Both the position numbers and the translations under genes were made by a program. Positions 877 to 9,678 of a stretch of 33,996 nucleotides of DNA are shown piece after piece. Under the pieces are notes generated by a model that saw only the letters and a list, made by a program, of their open reading frames with translations, had not been told where the DNA came from and ran no database searches. Each line of letters begins with the position of its first letter. Positions within the stretch are counted from its first letter, which is position 1. The DNA lies in NCBI GenBank assembly GCA_014879345.1, contig JACSSI010000001.1, positions 1 through 33,996 of the forward strand. Reading direction: 5' to 3'. The stretch comes from Anaerolineae bacterium. Its GTDB lineage: Bacteria; Chloroflexota; Anaerolineae; Promineifilales; Promineifilaceae.

Positions 877-1629
877 ATGAAAGAAAAGGTTCAGATAGGC
901 GTCAGCATTCTTGCTCTACTCGCCTTGCTAACTTACACGCTGGTACATACCGGTGGTTTGTTAGCCCGTTACGTTCAACCACCAGTGATTGGCTACGTGG
1001 CTGCCTTTGGCATCGAAGCAGCCGTTGTCAGTTTATCACTGCGAATTGGTGAGCTACGGCGCAGTAAGCAATCAACCGGATTTTTCTTGTTTGTTCTAAT
1101 TGCCGTCGTCATCGTGTCGGCTGTGGCCAATATCGCAGAAGGGTTTACGGCCGTTCAGGGTGAACGGCTGACCACCCAAACCATTCGTCAACTAGATCCA
1201 ATTCAAGCGTTCATCGGTTTGGCCGCTACTGGACTGGTTTCATTGATTGTGCTGGCGTTGGCCGAAATAATTGGGACGGATGTGGAAACGGCCGTTCAAC
1301 AATCTGCCCAACAGCGGAAAATCCGGGCCGTTCATGCAAAAGACAAATCCATTCCCACTGCGGAAACAAAAACCAAGCCAGTGTCCAACACAGCAGAAAC
1401 GGACAGCATCGAACGGGCACGTATCGCCAAAGCGGAAAAGGATACCAACAGCAAAACGAAAGCCGTAAACGCCTTGTTGGTTTACCTGAACGACAATCCT
1501 CAAGCCAGTTTGTCAGATATTGGACAGCAGATTAACCGTTCTAAAACGACCGTGTCCAGCTACATGCACGAACTGGAACGGAACGGCCGTTTACAACGGA
1601 ACGGTGAAGGCTGGCAAGTTTTATCATGA
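877..1629 (+). CDS. integral membrane protein with C-terminal winged-helix DNA-binding domain
   Basis: 250 aa. About 4 hydrophobic helices in the N-terminal half, then a K/E-rich linker, then LSDIGQQINRSKTTVSSYMHELERNGRL (wHTH-like). GGAGG RBS 5 nt upstream. Stop overlaps the next start (ATGA at 1626). Confidence 0.6.
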   Translation: MKEKVQIGVSILALLALLTYTLVHTGGLLARYVQPPVIGYVAAFGIEAAVVSLSLRIGELRRSKQSTGFFLFVLIAVVIVSAVANIAEGFTAVQGERLTTQTIRQLDPIQAFIGLAATGLVSLIVLALAEIIGTDVETAVQQSAQQRKIRAVHAKDKSIPTAETKTKPVSNTAETDSIERARIAKAEKDTNSKTKAVNALLVYLNDNPQASLSDIGQQINRSKTTVSSYMHELERNGRLQRNGEGWQVLS

Positions 1630-2066
1630 AATCGTTCGGCGCCGTTCTCCTGTTACTCTGCCTATTGTGTCTGTTAGTGTTCAGTCTGAGTGTAGGAAGC
1701 GTCGGAAAACACGCTGTAGACGCCTGGGCCGAACAGGCTGGACAGCCTGACAGTGTCACAGACACCGTCAGGCAAAGTCGCCAAACCCCGCCCATTGAAC
1801 CGGTCTATCGTACCAACAGAGCCTGGTTTGGCGCAGGTTTGTTGGCCCTGGTGGTGCTGGTGATTGGTGCAATGCTCTTCATGATGCATGGTGGCACTGA
1901 GTTCTTACGGCAGTGGCGATTGACCCGGAAACGGCCGTTTTCTCGCCAACAGCATACCCCTCAACAAGTACCTTACCCGATCAACTGGCCAGAGTTGCCC
2001 CACGTACCCACAGTACGCTATCTGCCGGAGGTGGACGATGAACAAGTTGTGGATTCTTGGGATTAG
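1626..2066 (+). CDS. small membrane protein (two hydrophobic segments)
   Basis: 146 aa. N-terminal signal/TM MKSFGAVLLLLCLLCLLVFSL and a second TM AWFGAGLLALVVLVIGAMLFMM. Translationally coupled on both sides. Confidence 0.5.
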   Translation: MKSFGAVLLLLCLLCLLVFSLSVGSVGKHAVDAWAEQAGQPDSVTDTVRQSRQTPPIEPVYRTNRAWFGAGLLALVVLVIGAMLFMMHGGTEFLRQWRLTRKRPFSRQQHTPQQVPYPINWPELPHVPTVRYLPEVDDEQVVDSWD

Positions 2067-3549
2067 CCTGTTTTTGCTGGCTGCCTGCAACACACCGCCT
2101 AATGGCGGGCATATCTTGACTCCTAATGCCGGGGCAACTTTATCCGCTGCCGAAATCGTCCATCAGCAAGCGGTCAACGCCGCCACGGCTCAAGCTGTTG
2201 AGTTGGTCCGGCAGTCGGCACAGGCCACCCAGCAAGCCTTAGTCGTGACGCAAGCAGCCGAGGTTATCGCTACTGGTACAGCCCAAAGCATCACCCGGGC
2301 ACAGACAGCCACGGCTGAGTCGATGGCAGTTCAGGCCACCGTGCAAGCCCTGGCTAATCAGGCAACATTATCCTCTATCGCTGCCAATGCCACCGGAACG
2401 GCCGTTGCTCAGGCTGCGATCGTTGAGCAACACCTGATAGAAGACGAAGCCCACCGCCTCGCCTTGCAGCGCCAATCCGAAATCGCCACGCTGGAATACA
2501 GGCAAGCCATGAACCGGCTAAAACCATTGTTGTGGGGCGGTCTGGTTTTCGCATTCATCATCCTCGCCGCTGGAATTGCTTACCACCTGTACCAACGATC
2601 TCGCCCGATCACCGTCGCCGATGTCAACGGCCCGCGTGTTTTGATTCCGGCCAACAGTTGGCAAGTCCTACCAGCGCAACGAACACAACGCGCTTTGCCA
2701 GAGTTATTGGGGCCAGGAGAAACGGCCGTTCGCCCCATTCCGCTCCCTTCTCTAGACCATGGACATGTCCTCATCGCTGGCGAAACCGGCAGCGGCAAAA
2801 GCACAGCCATGTTAGCCATTTTGCAGCACCGCCGGCAAGTGGTCATCCTCGACCCACACGATACCCCAGGCAATTGGGGCAGCACGCAGGTCATCGGCGG
2901 AGGACGAGACTTCGAGAGCATCGGTCTCTATTTGCAGCAGATGCGTCAATTGCTCAGCAAGCGTTACCGCCAGCGAGCACAAGGCGCCACCCAATTCGAA
3001 CCACTAACCGTAGCCACCGATGAAATGCCCGCTATCGTCGCCGCTTTAGGGCAACGAGTAGATGAAGTATGGCGCGAATGGTTAAGGGAAGGGCGTAAAG
3101 TGGGGCTGTTTTTTGTCGTGTCCACCCAAAGCACGCGCGTTAGAACCCTGGGTATACGCGGCGAAGGCGATTTACTGGAGAATTTCAACTACGTTTTGCT
3201 TCTTGGCAAGTTAGCCGTCGCTCAATACCCGGATCTGACCCAACGCATGGAATGGCCGGCCGTCTTGCGCACCAATCGGGATATCCGCCCTGTTATCATT
3301 CCAGTCGAACGTTCCTCAACTGACAGACCAACTAACACATCCCCCCTCTTTATTGCGCCAATGCCACAATCATCCGGCTATGCCGATCCCAATAACCTCA
3401 CCGAAGCTGTCCGCGAACATATCCGACAATTAGCAAAAGAACTACCCAGTCAAAGAGCAATAGAAAGAACCGTATTTGGCTATACAGGAGGTGCTGCCTA
3501 CCAGGCAGTCAAGGAAACCTTAGATGCTACTACGGACCAACACATATGA
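2038..3549 (+). CDS. FtsK/SpoIIIE (TraB-like) P-loop ATPase with lipoprotein signal, A/Q/T-rich ectodomain and one TM
   Basis: 503 aa. Lipobox LLAAC at residues 13-17. Low-complexity A/Q/T region. TM LLWGGLVFAFIILAAGIAYHLY. Walker A GETGSGKST, Walker B-like VATDEMP, and VGLFFVVSTQS (FtsK-like motif). Confidence 0.7.
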   Translation: MNKLWILGISLFLLAACNTPPNGGHILTPNAGATLSAAEIVHQQAVNAATAQAVELVRQSAQATQQALVVTQAAEVIATGTAQSITRAQTATAESMAVQATVQALANQATLSSIAANATGTAVAQAAIVEQHLIEDEAHRLALQRQSEIATLEYRQAMNRLKPLLWGGLVFAFIILAAGIAYHLYQRSRPITVADVNGPRVLIPANSWQVLPAQRTQRALPELLGPGETAVRPIPLPSLDHGHVLIAGETGSGKSTAMLAILQHRRQVVILDPHDTPGNWGSTQVIGGGRDFESIGLYLQQMRQLLSKRYRQRAQGATQFEPLTVATDEMPAIVAALGQRVDEVWREWLREGRKVGLFFVVSTQSTRVRTLGIRGEGDLLENFNYVLLLGKLAVAQYPDLTQRMEWPAVLRTNRDIRPVIIPVERSSTDRPTNTSPLFIAPMPQSSGYADPNNLTEAVREHIRQLAKELPSQRAIERTVFGYTGGAAYQAVKETLDATTDQHI

Positions 3550-3637
3550 TTTCTCGCTACGGTAGTAGCATAGTAGCGCCGCTACACACCTATAGCAGCG
3601 CAAAACTATAAGCAAAATTTCAGAAAGGAGAAATTTG

Positions 3638-5311
3638 ATGAGCAAACTTGCAGCAATTTATGTAAGAACATCTTCCGAACAACAAGGCGAAAGAGTAAGT
3701 CCAGGGGAACAAGAACGTGATTGCCGTTTGCTGGCCGAACAGCAAGGGTTAACAGTCGTAGGTGTATACCGCGACATCGAGCGGTATCGCGCCAAGAAGC
3801 GCCTAGTCGACCCTTCGGGTAAGCGCACGGATCGCCCAGGCATGAACGCTATGCTCAAAGACGCAGTTGCAGGAAAGTTTGACACCATTCTAGCCTGGAA
3901 AGAAGATCGACTTTATCGAGGCCTGCGGGCTATGTTATATGTGCTCGATGTTGTGCAAGATCAGAAAATGACGATTTTGCTAGCACGAGAAAATTTCGAT
4001 CCCAAAATGGCTCCTGTAAAAGCCTGGGTCGCCGGTATGGAATTAGATTCATTAAACGAAAGAATGACTATGGGAGTTAAAGCCCGTTTGCGAGCCGGTA
4101 AGGCCAATACCGGACAAGATCGATATGGATATCAACGTGTTGATGAAAAAATCTTCATCGTTGAGGAAGAAGCCAAATGGGTGCGCAAGATTTTCCAATG
4201 GTATAATAATCGAGTGTCCATGATGGAGATCCGCCGACGGCTTATCGAAGCGGGCGCTCCTCAAAAAGGCTCAACTAAACCGAGGAAAATTGAATGGGCC
4301 ATAACCAGCATTCAGGGTGTACTGAAAGCCGCCTACGAATATTCGCACGGTATTAAAGTGCAAACCCGCGCTGGAGAAGCCTTTGAAATCCCTGTCGAAC
4401 CAATAATCTCTATTGAAACGTATCAACGGTATTTGGAAGTCAGAGAATCAAACAAATCTTATCCGGCGCGCAATGTCAAAAACGATTATCTAGTGGGTGG
4501 ATTGATCTATTGCCAATGTCCGCGAAAATGGGGTGCCCGGGGTAGTTCATACAAACATGGAAATAAGCGACGTGATTACCCAACCGGCGTTTACTATTGT
4601 GGTCAACGTCATGCAGAGGTAAGACATGCCCATTGTCCAAAAACAATTGGCAGTAAAAAGGCAGACGACTATGTCTGGTCGAAAATTGTAGAGGTCTTAA
4701 ACAATCCTGACGTATTAATTACCAGAGCAAGACGTTACGTGGAAGAACTGTGCCAGAAAACAGAAACGGCCGTTACCGAACAAGATGCTTTGCAAACAGA
4801 ATTCGACAAACTCCTTTCGGAGCGGCAATGGATCATCACACAAGCACGGAAAGGAAGAATCACTGAAGAAGATATGGAACAGCAGTTGGCTCAATTAACG
4901 ACACAAGAACAGTACCTGAAAAACGAACTGGCTGCCTTCGGCGCTATCCACGAGATGCGATTGCTGGAGAATTGGGAAAAAATTGCCGTAGAGTACCTGG
5001 CAAACTTACATGCTGGTCTTGGGTCCCTCAATGAAACACCAACTACTGATGAAGAAAAAAAGGGGCAATTTCAACTGAAAAGGGAAATGGTTTTGATGTT
5101 AGTAGAAAAAGTGCTGATTAAAGAAGAGAGGAAGATGGAGGTGATTTTCAAGTTAGATGTGTTGTCGCTGTTGGGATTACATATCGACAACACATCTAAC
5201 GGCAATGGTGGATCAAACGTTAATTCACAACTGGCTCAAAACAAATTGGTCGGAACTTGTAACCGTAAACGATCATCCCTTCCTCGCCATCGGTTCGCAG
5301 TTTGCGCGTGA
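3638..5311 (+). CDS. large serine recombinase (integrase)
   Basis: N-terminal resolvase motif AAIYVRTSSEQQ and DRLYRG. Recombinase domain, Cys/His zinc-ribbon region (YCQCP...YYCGQRH...HCPK) and C-terminal coiled coil. AAGGAG RBS lies 7 nt before the ATG at 3638 (the ORF track starts at TTG 3635). The last ~40 aa look like read-through into flanking DNA. Confidence 0.9.
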   Translation: MSKLAAIYVRTSSEQQGERVSPGEQERDCRLLAEQQGLTVVGVYRDIERYRAKKRLVDPSGKRTDRPGMNAMLKDAVAGKFDTILAWKEDRLYRGLRAMLYVLDVVQDQKMTILLARENFDPKMAPVKAWVAGMELDSLNERMTMGVKARLRAGKANTGQDRYGYQRVDEKIFIVEEEAKWVRKIFQWYNNRVSMMEIRRRLIEAGAPQKGSTKPRKIEWAITSIQGVLKAAYEYSHGIKVQTRAGEAFEIPVEPIISIETYQRYLEVRESNKSYPARNVKNDYLVGGLIYCQCPRKWGARGSSYKHGNKRRDYPTGVYYCGQRHAEVRHAHCPKTIGSKKADDYVWSKIVEVLNNPDVLITRARRYVEELCQKTETAVTEQDALQTEFDKLLSERQWIITQARKGRITEEDMEQQLAQLTTQEQYLKNELAAFGAIHEMRLLENWEKIAVEYLANLHAGLGSLNETPTTDEEKKGQFQLKREMVLMLVEKVLIKEERKMEVIFKLDVLSLLGLHIDNTSNGNGGSNVNSQLAQNKLVGTCNRKRSSLPRHRFAVCA

Positions 5312-5630
5312 CCATTTCCACTGGCATCCCAATGTAGGCTTCATCCAGAGCCATATCCGTCAATTGTGCGGTGACAATGGGCCCTTCTTCCAATTTAATC
5401 AAGGCCACCTGATAGGGGGCATTGTGTTCAAAACCGGCTGGTGCGTCATAGATAGTGGTATAAGAGAAAACTTCACCTAAACCAGTGAAGGTATATAGTT
5501 CTTGAGCCGGTGCTTCACATTCTAAGCAAACATCACGGGGCGGAAATAATTTAACTCCACAAGAGTCACAGGTCTCCCCCACTAATTCATATCGTTGTTT
5601 TTGTAATCGCCAATGGCGTGAAACTTCCAT
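5220..5630 (-). CDS. DUF35 Zn-ribbon/OB-fold protein (thiolase/HMG-CoA synthase complex subunit type)
   Basis: 136 aa. CDSCGVKLFPPRDVCLEC rubredoxin-like C-x2-C-x10-C-x2-C followed by an OB-fold-type C-terminal half ending YGYKFRP. Adjacent to the thiolase and HMGCS genes. Confidence 0.85.
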   Translation of the reverse strand: MEVSRHWRLQKQRYELVGETCDSCGVKLFPPRDVCLECEAPAQELYTFTGLGEVFSYTTIYDAPAGFEHNAPYQVALIKLEEGPIVTAQLTDMALDEAYIGMPVEMVTRKLRTDGEEGMIVYGYKFRPICFEPVVN

Positions 5631-5833
5631 TATTATTTTCCTATCCTCCGAATAATTACGAAGATTTAAATTTTCGTTTTCCTAATGAACTAAGAGTTTC
5701 CAGTAGTGTATTATGCACACTTTTGCTTTCATTCCCTGCCAGAGTACAGGCAAAATACTGTCAAAAGCTATCATTGGTATAAAAAAGCGTTATTTGTTCA
5801 TGTTTTGTTAATAATTAGCACAACTATCGCACA

Positions 5834-6988
5834 TTAGTCGCGGATTTGCAAAATATGGGTAACGGCCGTTCCCCCACTGCCGCCTATATTCTGAGCCATG
5901 CCGATTTTTGCATCGGCAATCTGACAAGCACCCGCCTGACCGCGTAATTGACGCACCACTTCGACAATTTGGTACATGCCCGTCGCGCCACCTGGATTGC
6001 CCCGTGCTTTAAGGCCGCCAAATGTGCTGATGGGTAAACGGCCGTTTCTTGCAATCTCCCCATCCCGAGCCATCTGCCAACCCTTGCCCCGTTCCGCAAA
6101 GCCAGTCGCTTCCAGAGACAACGCCGCCATAATCGTGAACGAATCATGCAGTTCAAACAGGTCAATGTCATCATGCACCACGCCTGCCTGTGCCATCGCT
6201 TTCTGCGCACTCAACTCAGCCGCCTTCAACCACAATAAGTCGCGCCGATCATGCAGCGCAAACGCATCCGTGGCAATCGCCGAGCCAACAATTTCCACCG
6301 GCTGTGGCACCATGTCCATCGCCCGTTCCTTACTTGTCACAATAACGGCCGCTGCCCCATCAGCCAGGGGTGCCATATCAAACAGACTCACCGGATCAGC
6401 CACCAGTGGCGCAGAAATAAAACTCTCCGCCCGCAGCCGATTGCGGAACATCGCCAGCGGATTATCCGCGCCATTGGCATGAGCATTCACACTAAAACCA
6501 GCAAAATCCGCCAATTCTACGCCATGCTCATACATATAGCGCCGCATAATCAACGCTCCCATACCGGCCGTTGTTAACCCCTGCATCATTTCGTAGTCGG
6601 TATCAAGACCCGTTGCCAGGGCGCGTGTGACAGAAGCGCCTGTCTGGTCTGTCATTTTCTCCACACCTACAGCCAGCGCCGTTTTCACCATGCCGCTTTT
6701 CACAGCCAACACCGCTTGTCGCAGCGCCGCGCCACCAGACGCATCAGCCGCCTCCACCGTCACCGCTTCAATGCCGCGCATCCCGGCAAAATCTGCCACC
6801 AATGCGCCCAAATGGTTTTGCTGGCTCAGTTCACCAGCCAGCATATTGCCCACAAACAGAGCATCCACCTTACTTACGTGAGCATCATCCAGCGCCGCCT
6901 CAATCGCATACCACGACAGATGACGGATGGAGGTTTCCCACATTTCTTTCACTTCGGTTTGGCCTACGCCAATAATTGAAACATCCAT
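5834..6988 (-). CDS. thiolase-fold protein (archaeal/SCP2-type acetoacetyl-CoA thiolase homologue) with non-canonical active-site residues
   Basis: Start reassigned to MDVSIIGVGQT (ATG at 6986-6988, GAGGA RBS). Family motifs VEKMT, DGAAAVIV, GGLKA-G-P-GATG and NIGGSGGT are present. However VEAADASG has Asp where the Cys nucleophile is expected, HDSF replaces HDCF, and GNP replaces GHP. Confidence 0.85.
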   Translation of the reverse strand: MDVSIIGVGQTEVKEMWETSIRHLSWYAIEAALDDAHVSKVDALFVGNMLAGELSQQNHLGALVADFAGMRGIEAVTVEAADASGGAALRQAVLAVKSGMVKTALAVGVEKMTDQTGASVTRALATGLDTDYEMMQGLTTAGMGALIMRRYMYEHGVELADFAGFSVNAHANGADNPLAMFRNRLRAESFISAPLVADPVSLFDMAPLADGAAAVIVTSKERAMDMVPQPVEIVGSAIATDAFALHDRRDLLWLKAAELSAQKAMAQAGVVHDDIDLFELHDSFTIMAALSLEATGFAERGKGWQMARDGEIARNGRLPISTFGGLKARGNPGGATGMYQIVEVVRQLRGQAGACQIADAKIGMAQNIGGSGGTAVTHILQIRD

Positions 6989-7009: not shown

Positions 7010-7070
7010 TAGTGCGTAGTGCGTAATGCGTAAGCCGTTTAACGCTACGCAATACGTACTACGCACTACT
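7010..7070. repeat. Intercistronic hairpin built from TAGTGCG-type heptamers and their complement
   Basis: Left arm TAGTGCGTAGTGCGTAATGCGTAAGC, right arm GCTACGCAATACGTACTACGCACTA. About 22 of 25 positions pair. It fills the HMGCS-stop to thiolase-start gap. Confidence 0.75.
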
Positions 7071-7072
7071 GT

Positions 7073-8146
7073 TTATAGTTTTAATTTATCCCGATAGCGG
7101 GTATAGGTGGCGTAATCAATTTCCGTGCGGCGGGCGATATACCCTTCCGTAGAAATGGCACGGCCGCGCACTTCTGGCAGTTTTTCGGTGACTTGCAGAT
7201 CGAAGGCGTCTGAACCGGCGCCAGAGCCATAGCTCACCATCAAAATGCGGTCGCCCGGTTTGGCAATATCCAGAATGGCCGTAAGACCAATCATCGTGGA
7301 GCCAGAGTAGGTGTTGCCAATGCGGGGACTGAGCAGCCCGGGCGCAATTTTTTCAGGCGTAAAGCCTAACGATTTGGCGGCACGCTGCGGGAATTTGGCA
7401 TTAGGCTGATGAAAGACTGCCCAGTCATAATCGGCGGCTGTGCGGCCAATAGCGTTCATCAGCATCTCAGACGCGCCCATGACGTGTTTGAAATAGGCTG
7501 GCTCACCCGTAAAACGGTCGCCATGCGAGGGATAGTCTTCATGCGCCCGTCGCCAGAAGTCGGGCGTATCGGTGACAAAGGAGTAGGAGCCGTTGATAAT
7601 GGCAACCGATTCGTCGGCTGGGCCGATGAGGGTAGCCGCGCCACCAGCCGCTGCTGTGTATTCCAGGGCATCGCCCGGACGACCTTGAGCGGTGTCCATA
7701 CCGATGCTCAAGGCATAACGCGCCATACCAGAGCCAACGAAGGCAATCGCAGCCTGCATCGCTTCGGTGCCTGCTTTACAGGCGAATTCCCAGTCAGCAG
7801 CCTGGGTATTTGGCACAGCGCCAATTGCTTCGGCAACGGTGGTACTGGTTGGTTTGACGGCGTAGGGGTGGCTTTCGCTGCCTACCCAGACGGCGCGGAT
7901 CTCTTGCGGATTGATTTGGGCGCGTAACATGGTGTTGCGTGCCGCTTCAATCGACATGGTGATCACGTCTTCGTCCAGGCCATTGACTGCTTTTTCTTTG
8001 ACAGGCGAGCCACCGGTGCCACCCGTCCACATGCGCGAGATTTCCTCGCCTCTAATACGATAGCGTGGCACATAAGCGCCATACCCGACGATGCCAACGG
8101 GTCGGTCGGGTTTCATGAGTCCATCTGAGGGGTTGTAGTTGTTCAT
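7073..8146 (-). CDS. hydroxymethylglutaryl-CoA synthase (archaeal type)
   Basis: 357 aa. [15 protein letters not shown], catalytic-Cys motif [19 protein letters not shown] and GNTYSGS. GAGGA RBS. Confidence 0.9.
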
Positions 8147-8153
8147 GTTTCCT

Positions 8154-8214
8154 CGTAGTGCGTAGTGCGTAGTGCGTATTTCGTCGGATTACGGAATACG
8201 CACTACGCACTACG
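8154..8214. repeat. Intercistronic hairpin (TAGTGCG)n / (CGCACTA)n
   Basis: Arm 8161-8184 (CGTAGTGCGTAGTGCGTATTTCGT) pairs with arm 8191-8214 at 23 of 24 positions; loop is CGGATT. It fills the HMGR-stop to HMGCS-start gap. Confidence 0.8.
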
Positions 8215-8215
8215 A

Positions 8216-9568
8216 TTATTTATTAAGTTCCGCGAGAATTTCCTGGGCGCGGACGCTGTTGATTTGTTTGTCTGCAATCATACGTTCGGTAATGACTGGT
8301 ACTTGCTCGGGGGTGGCGCCGGCAGCGGTGGCAACCTGACGGGCGTGCAAGCGCATGTGGCCTTGTTGGATGCCGACGGTTGAGAGGGCTTTGATGGCGG
8401 CCAAATTTTGAGCCAGGCCCACACAGGCCAGCACTTGGGCCAGTTCTTGGGCAGAACTGACGTTTAGGATTTTCATGGCGACTTTGGCGGTGGGATGCAC
8501 TTTAGTCGCGCCCCCGACTGTGCCAACGGCCATCGGCAAGGTGATTTCGCCATAGAGGTCGCCGTTTTCGTTGACGTGCCAGTCGGTGAGGGCGGTATAA
8601 CGGCCGTTTCTCGCCGCATAAGCATGAGCACCCGCCTCAATCGCCCGCCAGTCATTACCCGTTGCCACTACCACCGCGTCAATACCGTTCATGATGCCTT
8701 TGTTGTGGGTGGCCGCCCGATAGGGGTCTACGATGGCGAAGGCGTTGGCTTCAGCGATGCGCTGGGCCGCTTCTGCGCCAGAAATGCCGTCCACTGCCAG
8801 GGCTGCTGCGGGAATAACGCCGCGGGCGGTGGCGGTGCGCTGGTCGGCCAAATTGGAGAGAATGCGCAGTAAGGTGCGTCCGCCAGTTAATTCAGCGATG
8901 CGAGGGGCCATCAGTTCCAATGCCGTATTGACGGAGTTTGCGCCCATAGCATCACGGGTGTCGTAGAGCAGGTGGACAATCAACATGGGACCGACGGGTG
9001 AATCGGGAAACGGCCGTTGTTGAATATCCCGTGCGCCACCACCCAGCCGAAGCATCAGGGCATCACTGCTGTTCGCCAGTTCCATGAGCTCATCTTTGTG
9101 CGCTTCGAGGGTGGCAATGGCCGCCTCCATATCAGGCACGTCCAGCACCTGAATCTGCCCAATCATGACCGGATCGCTGGCTTCTGTGTGGAAACCGCCA
9201 CCGGCACGAATCAATTTGGCCGCATGGCTCAACGCAGCTACCACACTCGGCTCTTCTACCGTCATGGGAATGAGATAGTCCTTGCCGTTTATCTGAAAGT
9301 TAGTGGCAATTCCCAGGGGCAATGCATAAGTGCCCACAACATTTTCAATCATGAGGTCTGCTTGTTCTGGCTGCAAACCTTTTCCGTTCAAAACAGCTTT
9401 TTCATCAGCAGAAAGTTCTGCCCATTTAGCTATTAGATCAGCTCGATCTGTAACTGATTTTTTGTAAAACCCCGGTATACGTGATGATTGACTTGTCACA
9501 ATCCACTCCTTTTCAAAACAATCCCGCAGGTTTTGGGCTGCGGGAGACTGTTTTAGATTTAGTTTCAC
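8216..9568 (-). CDS. mvaA: HMG-CoA reductase, class II
   Basis: 450 aa, GTG start. MIENVVGTYALPLGIATNFQINGKDYLIPMTVEEPSVVAA, HNKGIMNGIDAVVVATGNDWRA and QQGHMRLHARQ match class II (Pseudomonas mevalonii type) catalytic Glu/Lys/Asp/His motifs. Confidence 0.9.
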   Translation of the reverse strand: MKLNLKQSPAAQNLRDCFEKEWIVTSQSSRIPGFYKKSVTDRADLIAKWAELSADEKAVLNGKGLQPEQADLMIENVVGTYALPLGIATNFQINGKDYLIPMTVEEPSVVAALSHAAKLIRAGGGFHTEASDPVMIGQIQVLDVPDMEAAIATLEAHKDELMELANSSDALMLRLGGGARDIQQRPFPDSPVGPMLIVHLLYDTRDAMGANSVNTALELMAPRIAELTGGRTLLRILSNLADQRTATARGVIPAAALAVDGISGAEAAQRIAEANAFAIVDPYRAATHNKGIMNGIDAVVVATGNDWRAIEAGAHAYAARNGRYTALTDWHVNENGDLYGEITLPMAVGTVGGATKVHPTAKVAMKILNVSSAQELAQVLACVGLAQNLAAIKALSTVGIQQGHMRLHARQVATAAGATPEQVPVITERMIADKQINSVRAQEILAELNK

Positions 9569-9678
9569 GTGTAAAACATCTTTCGCAAAGGAAAGGTATG
9601 TATTTATATCTTTGGTTTGCTGTCAAAAGCTATCACAACCTTTTTTCAGCAGTATTTGAAAGGGAAAATGAAGTGTGA

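Follow-up and report, generated by a model that had tools for sequence, protein, structure and literature searches.

The window analysed here is a stretch of DNA of 33,996 nucleotides (nt) from an Anaerolineae bacterium of the Chloroflexota (family Promineifilaceae; assembly GCA_014879345.1, contig JACSSI010000001.1, positions 1 to 33,996 of the forward strand). Its minus strand carries a block of four consecutive genes for 3-hydroxy-3-methylglutaryl-CoA (HMG-CoA) reductase (HMGR), HMG-CoA synthase (HMGCS), a thiolase-fold protein (gene THL) and a DUF35 protein. We found that the thiolase-fold protein, together with an entire lineage of related proteins, has no Cys at the nucleophile position and no His in its GHP motif, and that its gene is nonetheless intact. 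On balance, we consider it probable that the protein is a pseudo-thiolase, descended from an archaeal-type acetoacetyl-CoA thiolase, which has lost covalent catalysis and is kept in the complex with HMGCS and DUF35 for a structural role. The gene and the codons on which the argument turns are as follows.

5834..6988, minus strand: thiolase-fold protein of 384 amino acids, matching Pfam Thiolase_N and Thiolase_C_1; predicted pseudo-thiolase subunit
6743..6745, minus strand: Asp82, codon GAT, at the site of the nucleophilic Cys (CxS motif) in HMMER alignments to structures
6146..6148, minus strand: His281, codon CAT, the His of HDxF, kept and invariant in the window-clade alignment
6140..6142, minus strand: Ser283, codon TCG, at the 'x' of HDxF, where 7yvy and Cys-bearing Chloroflexota orthologues have Ala
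5996..5998, minus strand: Asn331, codon AAT, at the site of the GHP His, with Asn in all 120 closest homologues

By its sequence, the protein is an orthologue by descent of the archaeal-type (SCP2-like) mevalonate (MVA) acetoacetyl-CoA thiolase (EC 2.3.1.9). Its best matches in the Protein Data Bank are 7yvy, the P. furiosus thiolase (2.5e-112, 51% identity), and 6esq_A (2e-74, 40% identity), from the thiolase/HMGCS/DUF35 complex of Methanothermococcus thermolithotrophicus. The same two structures were the top Foldseek matches (TM 0.80–0.85), and an AlphaFold2 model built on a shallow 40-sequence alignment was of moderate quality (pLDDT 69, pTM 0.79). Among NCBIfam models, the protein passes the subfamily NF004720 (443 bits, cutoff 420) and falls short of the equivalog AcCoTHIOL_METTL (NF053570; 375 bits, cutoff 600). 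Public records label these genes "acetyl-CoA C-acetyltransferase". Since two of the three defining motifs and the equivalog cutoff fail, the protein should not be named acetyl-CoA acetyltransferase, and because the records carry that annotation, pathway reconstructions that count these genes as the MVA entry enzyme are probably wrong. A GTG at 7066 offers an alternative start for the reading frame; all homologues are 382–389 amino acids long and begin with MDVSIIG, and the start is therefore placed at 6988.

The original prediction held that all three canonical catalytic residues of a thiolase are lost from this protein, and it placed the Asp, Ser and Asn codons exactly. The relevant motifs, which correspond to the CxS, HDxF and GHx motifs of archaeal ACAT (Liao et al. 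2026; PMC12960953), read TVEAADASGGA, L-H-D-S-F and K-A-R-G-N-P-G-G-A. HMMER alignments to 7yvy and 6esq_A are ungapped at all three motifs, setting Asp82 against the Cys of EAACASG and Asn331 against the His of G-H-P/A-x-GATG, so that alignment to solved thiolase structures bears out the absence of Cys and His at these two sites. At the third site, HDAF and not HDCF is found in 7yvy, in 32 of 32 Cys-bearing Chloroflexota orthologues and in most Cys-bearing archaeal relatives, with Cys at the 'x' only in 6esq and in SCP2 thiolases. Therefore, Ser283 stands for an Ala and not for a catalytic Cys. The GHP His is present in the same 32 orthologues. The His and Asp of HDxF (His281 and Asp282) are retained and invariant in the window clade; in archaeal ACAT, the H284A substitution of the HDxF His abolished HMG-CoA formation (PMC12960953). 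The claim of a triple loss consequently stands for the nucleophilic Cys and the GHP His and falls for the HDCF Cys, which is not canonical in this subfamily; as judged from the alignments, the true losses are two.

The thiolase mechanism needs an acyl-thioester on the nucleophilic Cys. A migrated catalytic Cys was considered and ruled out: Cys is conserved at no alignment column, 16 of 49 proteins are free of Cys altogether and the window protein's sole Cys, Cys355, is present in only 59%. Because no column holds a conserved Cys, a relocated nucleophile is excluded. With these residues, the acyl-Cys intermediate by which thiolase catalysis is defined is out of the protein's reach, and it cannot be a conventional thiolase.

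We determined how far the substitutions extend by searching a 5.8-billion-sequence collection and by scanning the species genomes of the Genome Taxonomy Database (GTDB). The 120 closest proteins share 75–94% identity with the window protein, come from many independent assemblies and in every case lack both the Cys and the GHP His. The Asp/Ser/Asn combination (D-HDS-N) is found in 99, followed by D-HDA-N in 10 and D-HVS-N in one, while the remaining patterns carry E (6), N (2), A (1) or G (1) as nucleophile-position residue; Asp thus occupies that position in 110 proteins, and Asn331 is invariant.

The GTDB scan returned 80 loci, all Chloroflexota, almost all of which share the order HMGCS-THL-DUF35. 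HMGR lies upstream in the window-like clade and at some Cys-form loci, and the HMGCS catalytic tetrad E-C-H-N is intact at every locus examined. At least 45 loci, from Ardenticatenaceae, Promineifilaceae, Ca. Leptofilum and Ca. Leptovillus, have a non-Cys thiolase within a conserved HMGR-HMGCS-THL-DUF35 operon. The non-Cys state belongs to loci at least 67% identical to the window protein, from the NCBI class Ardenticatenia, and includes four loci at about 70% identity in which the Cys is gone and the His kept (D-HDA-H). Loci at 60% identity or less (Roseilinea, Thermoflexales, Caldilineae, Longilinea arvoryzae KOME-1 and others) are C-HDA-H, with two exceptions, E-HDA-N (L065) and G-HDG-N (L076). 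More distant non-Cys members of the same operon type carry D/H/A/N (P0123), Q/H/A/N (P0128), G/S/A/N (P0126) and G/Y/Q/N (P0127) at the nucleophile, the His and 'x' of HDxF and the GHP site; in P0126 and P0127 the HDxF His is missing as well, and the HMGCS beside all four still reads ECHN.

The Cys and the GHP His are thus lost in an entire lineage of Chloroflexota, comprising Ardenticatenia (Ardenticatenales and Promineifilales) and deeper unnamed relatives. When written as four letters in the same order, the forms appear to compose a stepwise series within the lineage, from CHAH through DHAH, DHAN and DHSN to forms without all three residues. Separately, Longilinea-type Anaerolineae (L051, L055, L070–L073, L078 and L080, including the cultured L. 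arvoryzae KOME-1) have a CHAH orthologue with no HMGCS or DUF35 gene within 10 kb, and hence the thiolase is not always operon-linked in Chloroflexota.

We compared the divergence of the thiolase with that of HMGCS at the loci that carry both genes. The thiolase/HMGCS ratio of amino-acid divergence is 0.55–0.8 in the Cys clade and 1.3–1.7 in the non-Cys clade. Nei-Gojobori estimates, restricted to pairs with unsaturated dS (dS is near saturation for many pairs), give dN/dS values in the non-Cys clade of 0.048–0.065 for the thiolase and 0.024–0.041 for HMGCS, and dN(THL)/dN(HMGCS) ratios of 1.45–2.0 in the non-Cys clade versus 0.74–0.78 in the Cys clade. The non-Cys thiolase gene is under strong purifying selection; measured against HMGCS, its rate of evolution is about double that of the Cys-bearing orthologues. 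Roughly half of the constraint relative to its partner is gone, as would be expected if catalysis were lost and a structural role kept.

To locate the remaining constraint, we defined a family core: the 89 positions with an identity of 95% or more across every Cys-bearing sequence from Chloroflexota and Archaea, 7YVY and 6ESQ among them. In the non-Cys clade, 76 of the 89 positions (85%) are retained at 90% or more, in agreement with the earlier observation that the other fold motifs are well preserved. The kept positions include E79, S84, VEKM (109–112), H170, N176, DGA (210–212), H281, D282 and the GGLK-R-G-P-GATG block. Clearly lost are C82, S51, A127, F140, N144, A283 and H331; F140, A127 and V333 are hypervariable.

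The same substitutions recur in Archaea. The protein P0130, 46% identical to the window protein, reads D/H/S/H, and it and its relatives are source-named Candidatus Bathyarchaeota or Bathyarchaeia. The Bathyarchaeia gene order is GGR-PcrB(GGGPS)-Fe-ADH(G1PDH)-HMGCS-THL-DUF35-polyprenyl synthase (GGPPS), with the HMGCS tetrad intact. The 120 best homologues of P0130 comprise 71 with CHAH and about 30 with Asp (DHSH, DHSN, DHNH, DHCN and DHAN), and many archaeal Asp forms contain the identical string VEAADASGG. Their core losses also match those of the Chloroflexota clade: C82 → D, A127, F140, N144, A283 → S/N and H331 → N. Three Bathyarchaeia contigs (L087, L089 and L091) hold lipid clusters with an Asp-for-Cys thiolase (DHSH, DHCN).

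We then calculated a bootstrap tree, by neighbour-joining (NJ) only, with the four catalytic columns removed and 100 replicates. All Chloroflexota, Cys and non-Cys, group together in 100 of 100 replicates, the archaeal sequences in 99 and the Chloroflexota non-Cys clade in 94, and the Chloroflexota non-Cys sequences join the archaeal Asp forms in none (0/100). A single origin of the Asp forms through transfer between Archaea and Chloroflexota is ruled out by this last value, obtained with the catalytic columns masked, and the loss in Bathyarchaeia is consequently read as independent. Counting L076, the thiolase has been lost at least three times inside an otherwise intact MVA/lipid cluster, converging on Asp, Ser and Asn.

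The partner genes in the window show no corresponding loss, and the earlier statement that HMGCS keeps its catalytic residues is confirmed by an intact tetrad.

7073..8146, minus strand: HMG-CoA synthase, archaeal-type, with the tetrad E91/C123/H246/N278 intact (6esq_I, 2.3e-131; TIGR00748, 537 bits, cutoff 353)
5220..5630, minus strand: DUF35 protein of 136 amino acids, with a rubredoxin-like Zn ribbon and an OB fold (Pfam zf-ChsH2 and OB_ChsH2_C; 6esq_E, 1.9e-32)
8216..9568, minus strand: HMG-CoA reductase, class II (NAD-type), the operon's first gene (Pfam HMG-CoA_red, 4.4e-115; TIGR00532, 431 bits)

The DUF35 translation contains CxxC...CxxC, and by its matches the protein appears to be the connector subunit of the thiolase/HMGCS/DUF35 complex. 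The alignments of HMGR homologues start at residues 18–27, leaving the first ~20 residues of the reading frame unmatched, and its true start therefore probably lies downstream of the GTG at 9568. The best NCBIfam model for this HMGR, TIGR00532, bears the name 'degradative'.

The original prediction offered two readings of the protein, a non-catalytic scaffold for the HMGCS/DUF35 complex or an enzyme of altered chemistry. That pair of options fits all of our computed data and is only partly supported overall; the scaffold is clearly the better supported of the two, because the losses are clade-wide and combined with purifying selection, position 82 is variable, a conserved Cys is absent, and the shell of the active site has relaxed with 85% of the core kept. 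According to this proposed mechanism, the subunit would be kept because archaeal-type HMGCS depends on its complex with the thiolase and DUF35. Archaeal ACAT is described as insoluble, and HMGS as inactive, when expressed alone, in a passage of PMC12960953 that cites Vogeli 2018; the CoA-binding chamber is formed jointly by the HMGS and thiolase subunits, with DUF35 bridging the two (PMC12960953). The reported inactivity of lone archaeal HMGS and the shared CoA chamber would explain why the subunit is retained: even when dead, it could serve assembly and solubility and contribute to the common CoA pocket. Another enzyme, for example a beta-oxidation or biosynthetic thiolase, would make the acetoacetyl-CoA, which would enter HMGCS via the shared pocket.

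Within the emptied active site, Asp82, Ser283 and Asn331 may form a self-satisfying polar network that stabilises the fold, and not a new catalytic triad. Asp82 would act as a helix N-cap where the Cys-bearing helix begins, with Asn and Ser as its hydrogen-bond partners. Asp is far commoner at position 82 than E, N, G, A or S, a spectrum that would match good helix N-cap residues, the Cys normally sitting at a helix N-terminus; in the AlphaFold2 model, with its moderate pLDDT, the helix begins at residue 84. The order of substitution, D first and then N and S, is consistent with neutral hydrogen-bond partners compensating for a buried carboxylate.

Several observations weigh against the pseudo-thiolase reading. 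The window and the 20-kb flanks of all 80 loci hold no other thiolase, no NphT7-type synthase and no acetoacetate-CoA ligase. A tblastn search with an approximate E. coli AtoB query found no second thiolase in the window or the 80 loci, and Pfam searches of the remaining window open reading frames (ORFs) recovered an acyl-CoA dehydrogenase only and no second thiolase. The likely, if mundane, resolution would be a paralogous thiolase elsewhere in the genome. A study of 53 wastewater Chloroflexota metagenome-assembled genomes records fadA in nearly all of them, including Ca. Leptofilum and Ca. Leptovillus (PMC10746286). The fadA hint is generic, however, and the same study lists Ca. Leptofilum without fatty acids as a substrate (PMC10746286). 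In addition, two positions that active forms conserve, basic or close to a motif, are altered here (K/R77 to T), and the convergent origin of Asp, Ser and Asn in Bacteria and Archaea could mean that a new function was selected.

The first alternative is a regulatory subunit, in which the dead thiolase senses CoA, acetyl-CoA or acetoacetyl-CoA and acts mainly as an allosteric gate on the flux through HMGCS, without being structurally indispensable. Such a role would account for the retention of most core positions, including a conserved stretch at about residues 163–211; pseudoenzymes are often allosteric regulators of active paralogues, and an extra copy of an upstream 16-mer before DUF35, described below, suggests a changed expression stoichiometry. 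The reported inactivity of lone archaeal HMGS, however, is a simpler and structural reason for keeping the subunit. We consider regulation fairly unlikely as the main explanation, noting that it overlaps with the scaffold and that sequence cannot separate the two.

A second alternative is that Asp/Ser/Asn, with His281, make up a new site that delivers acetoacetyl-CoA or an equivalent without an acyl-Cys, possibly by malonyl-CoA decarboxylation coupled to condensation or by general-base catalysis through Asp82. The joint recurrence of D, S and N in two independent lineages, Chloroflexota and Bathyarchaeia, and the invariance of His281 and Asp282 in the window clade are what such a site would predict, and the Cys-less TbSLP binds malonyl-CoA and acetoacetyl-CoA and is a weak malonyl-CoA decarboxylase (PMC12329534). 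Against it, Asp82 is swapped for E, N, G or A in close relatives with identical-looking operons, the deeper non-Cys members have lost the HDxF His as well, and the pocket positions F140, N144, A127 and V333 are relaxed and not tightened. Moreover, decarboxylating sites of the ketosynthase (KS) type need a His pair, half of which is missing, and a non-covalent condensation of two CoA esters needs two CoA sites, where one shared chamber has been described. Altered chemistry is therefore an unlikely explanation. The more specific proposal, that the pocket arose independently in Ardenticatenia and Bathyarchaeia as an alternative site that supplies or gates acetoacetyl-CoA for HMGCS without a covalent Cys, for example from malonyl-CoA, strikes us as doubtful; if true, the mevalonate pathway would have an entry step that has so far gone unrecognised, also in archaea whose membrane lipids depend on that pathway.

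Residual genuine thiolase activity through non-canonical residues would be compatible with the intact fold, HDxF His, GATG loop and most core residues, but it is very unlikely, because an acyl-Cys is needed, no Cys is conserved, a third of the clade is Cys-free and the GHP His is lost. Finally, an error of sequencing or assembly, or a pseudogene in decay, for which nothing speaks beyond the oddity of the residues, can be dismissed, since the same substitutions appear in more than 120 independent assemblies, Cys to Asp requires two nucleotide changes, the reading frame is intact and dN/dS is about 0.05.

We compared the system with characterised complexes and enzymes. Like the archaeal thiolase/HMGCS/DUF35 complex (6ESQ), it has three homologous subunits encoded by adjacent genes, with the HMGCS E-C-H-N and the HDxF His present; unlike in that complex, the nucleophilic Cys is replaced by Asp and the GHP His by Asn, and with these residues the window thiolase would be unable to run the first Claisen condensation. 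The PhlACB and MucABC Friedel-Crafts acyltransferases and P. fluorescens PfACAT/HMGS-DUF35 are likewise tripartite and keep one dead thiolase-superfamily subunit, and in complexes of this type the whole complex is required for solubility and activity (PMC12960953). The window set is their mirror image. There, the HMGS-like subunit lacks E-C-H-N and the ACAT-like subunit keeps its Cys (in PhlACB and MucABC without HDxF), whereas here HMGCS has E91, C123, H246 and N278 and the ACAT is dead, with the Cys lost and the HDxF His kept. These systems have also left the mevalonate pathway, while the window set still stands beside HMGR. Liao et al. mined 1,030 bacterial HMGS/ACAT/DUF35 loci and discussed only inactive HMGS (PMC12960953), and our literature search, limited in coverage, found no earlier account of an MVA operon whose thiolase lacks the Cys.

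Thiolase folds of the SCP2 type without a nucleophilic Cys are known from TbSLP (5AB4-7), Ltp2-ChsH2(DUF35) (6OK1) and Sal-Shy (9MYR), and the TbSLP structures 5ab6 and 5ab7 are among the Foldseek matches of the window protein. Ltp2 and Sal have a DUF35 domain as partner, as the window protein is predicted to have. Yet Ltp2, Sal and TbSLP carry Y-D-[CH]-[FY] with a catalytic Tyr (the Y-D-[H/C]-[F/Y] motif of the steroid aldolases and TbSLP; PMC12329534) and use steroid CoA esters as substrates or are of unknown function, whereas the window protein reads H-D-S-F and is 25–28% identical to them. Because it has no Y-D-x-F motif, it is not of this type. The DUF35 of the steroid aldolases is fused to a MaoC-type hydratase and encoded in a steroid or bile-acid catabolic cluster, and that of the window stands alone in an MVA operon.

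In the KS-CLF heterodimers of type II polyketide synthases (PKS), a Cys-less partner from the thiolase superfamily is kept beside an active condensing enzyme. This partner, the chain-length factor (CLF), carries Gln at the Cys position and retains what malonyl decarboxylation requires in the way of residues. The window protein differs in having Asp at this position (variably D/E/N/G/A), in having lost the GHP His and in being partnered with HMGCS and not with a paralogous KS. The original prediction had drawn a comparison with ketosynthase-like domains that decarboxylate with Gln in place of Cys (KS-Q); this analogy does not fit, because that mechanism needs the His pair and the GHP His is lost. 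By analogy, the protein's way of working may come closest to that of the dead subunits in complexes of the PhlACB/MucABC type, or to that of the type II PKS chain-length factor, the two subunits having exchanged roles.

The current explanation of the complex is that it channels acetoacetyl-CoA into HMGCS and in this way draws the unfavourable condensation by the thiolase forward. If Ardenticatenia, and some Bathyarchaeia within their core lipid cluster, keep the complex with a dead thiolase, then a need for the complex beyond channelling comes into question, as does the origin of the acetoacetyl-CoA for isoprenoid synthesis in Ardenticatenia and in those Bathyarchaeia with Asp forms. For specialists, the surprise would be a channelling complex that persists without its first enzyme, Archaea included. 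The lineage would offer a natural stepwise series for the origin of a pseudoenzyme inside a metabolic complex, as a counterpart to the reverse case, described recently, in which a dead HMGS accompanies a live ACAT.

The operon's intergenic DNA also distinguishes the non-Cys clade. A 16-mer that contains TTGACA and resembles a TGAYAG-N4-TGACAG direct repeat occurs twice in the window.

9620..9635, minus strand: 16-mer TGATAGCTTTTGACAG, 52 nt upstream of the HMGR ORF; candidate promoter/operator
5758..5773, minus strand: second copy of the 16-mer TGATAGCTTTTGACAG, an exact match, in the 203-nt AT-rich spacer between the thiolase and DUF35

A degenerate pattern of the 16-mer is present at 32 of the 80 related loci, exclusively in the non-Cys clade and always upstream of HMGR and/or before DUF35. 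We regard it as a candidate clade-specific promoter or operator that was duplicated before DUF35. Except at loci with a 1.7-kb insertion, the THL-DUF35 spacer measures 150–340 nt in non-Cys loci and 0–115 nt in Cys loci. The insertion separates THL from DUF35 in L028 (11146–12884), L030 and L045 and encodes an ECF-type sigma factor and a putative anti-sigma factor on the opposite strand, by which a replacement enzyme in this place is ruled out. Despite the insertion, the 16-mer motif still precedes DUF35 at these three loci.

Rfam searches of the operon gave sub-threshold chance matches only. The operon's two remaining spacers, at 7010–7069 and 8154–8214, are made up of tandem arrays of inverted heptamers (TAGTGCG / CTACGCA) that form strong hairpins, with a 20-bp stem at 8164–8211; for the 69-nt spacer the value is −38 kcal/mol. 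At related loci, other heptamers occupy the same places (CCGTAAG, TAATTAG, AGCTAAC and CCGATTA), and the arrays resemble the STRR repeats of cyanobacteria.

On the plus strand, a large serine recombinase gene with Resolvase and Recombinase domains (3635–5311) overlaps the 3' end of DUF35 by 92 nt. It closes an element at 877–5311 in which genes for a helix-turn-helix (HTH) protein, an ORF of unknown function and an FtsK/HerA-like ATPase precede it. A full homologue lies in the same place in L013, and partial copies or remnants lie beside DUF35 in L006, L021, L017, L041 and L012; these placements suggest that integration has occurred repeatedly at the 3' end of DUF35.

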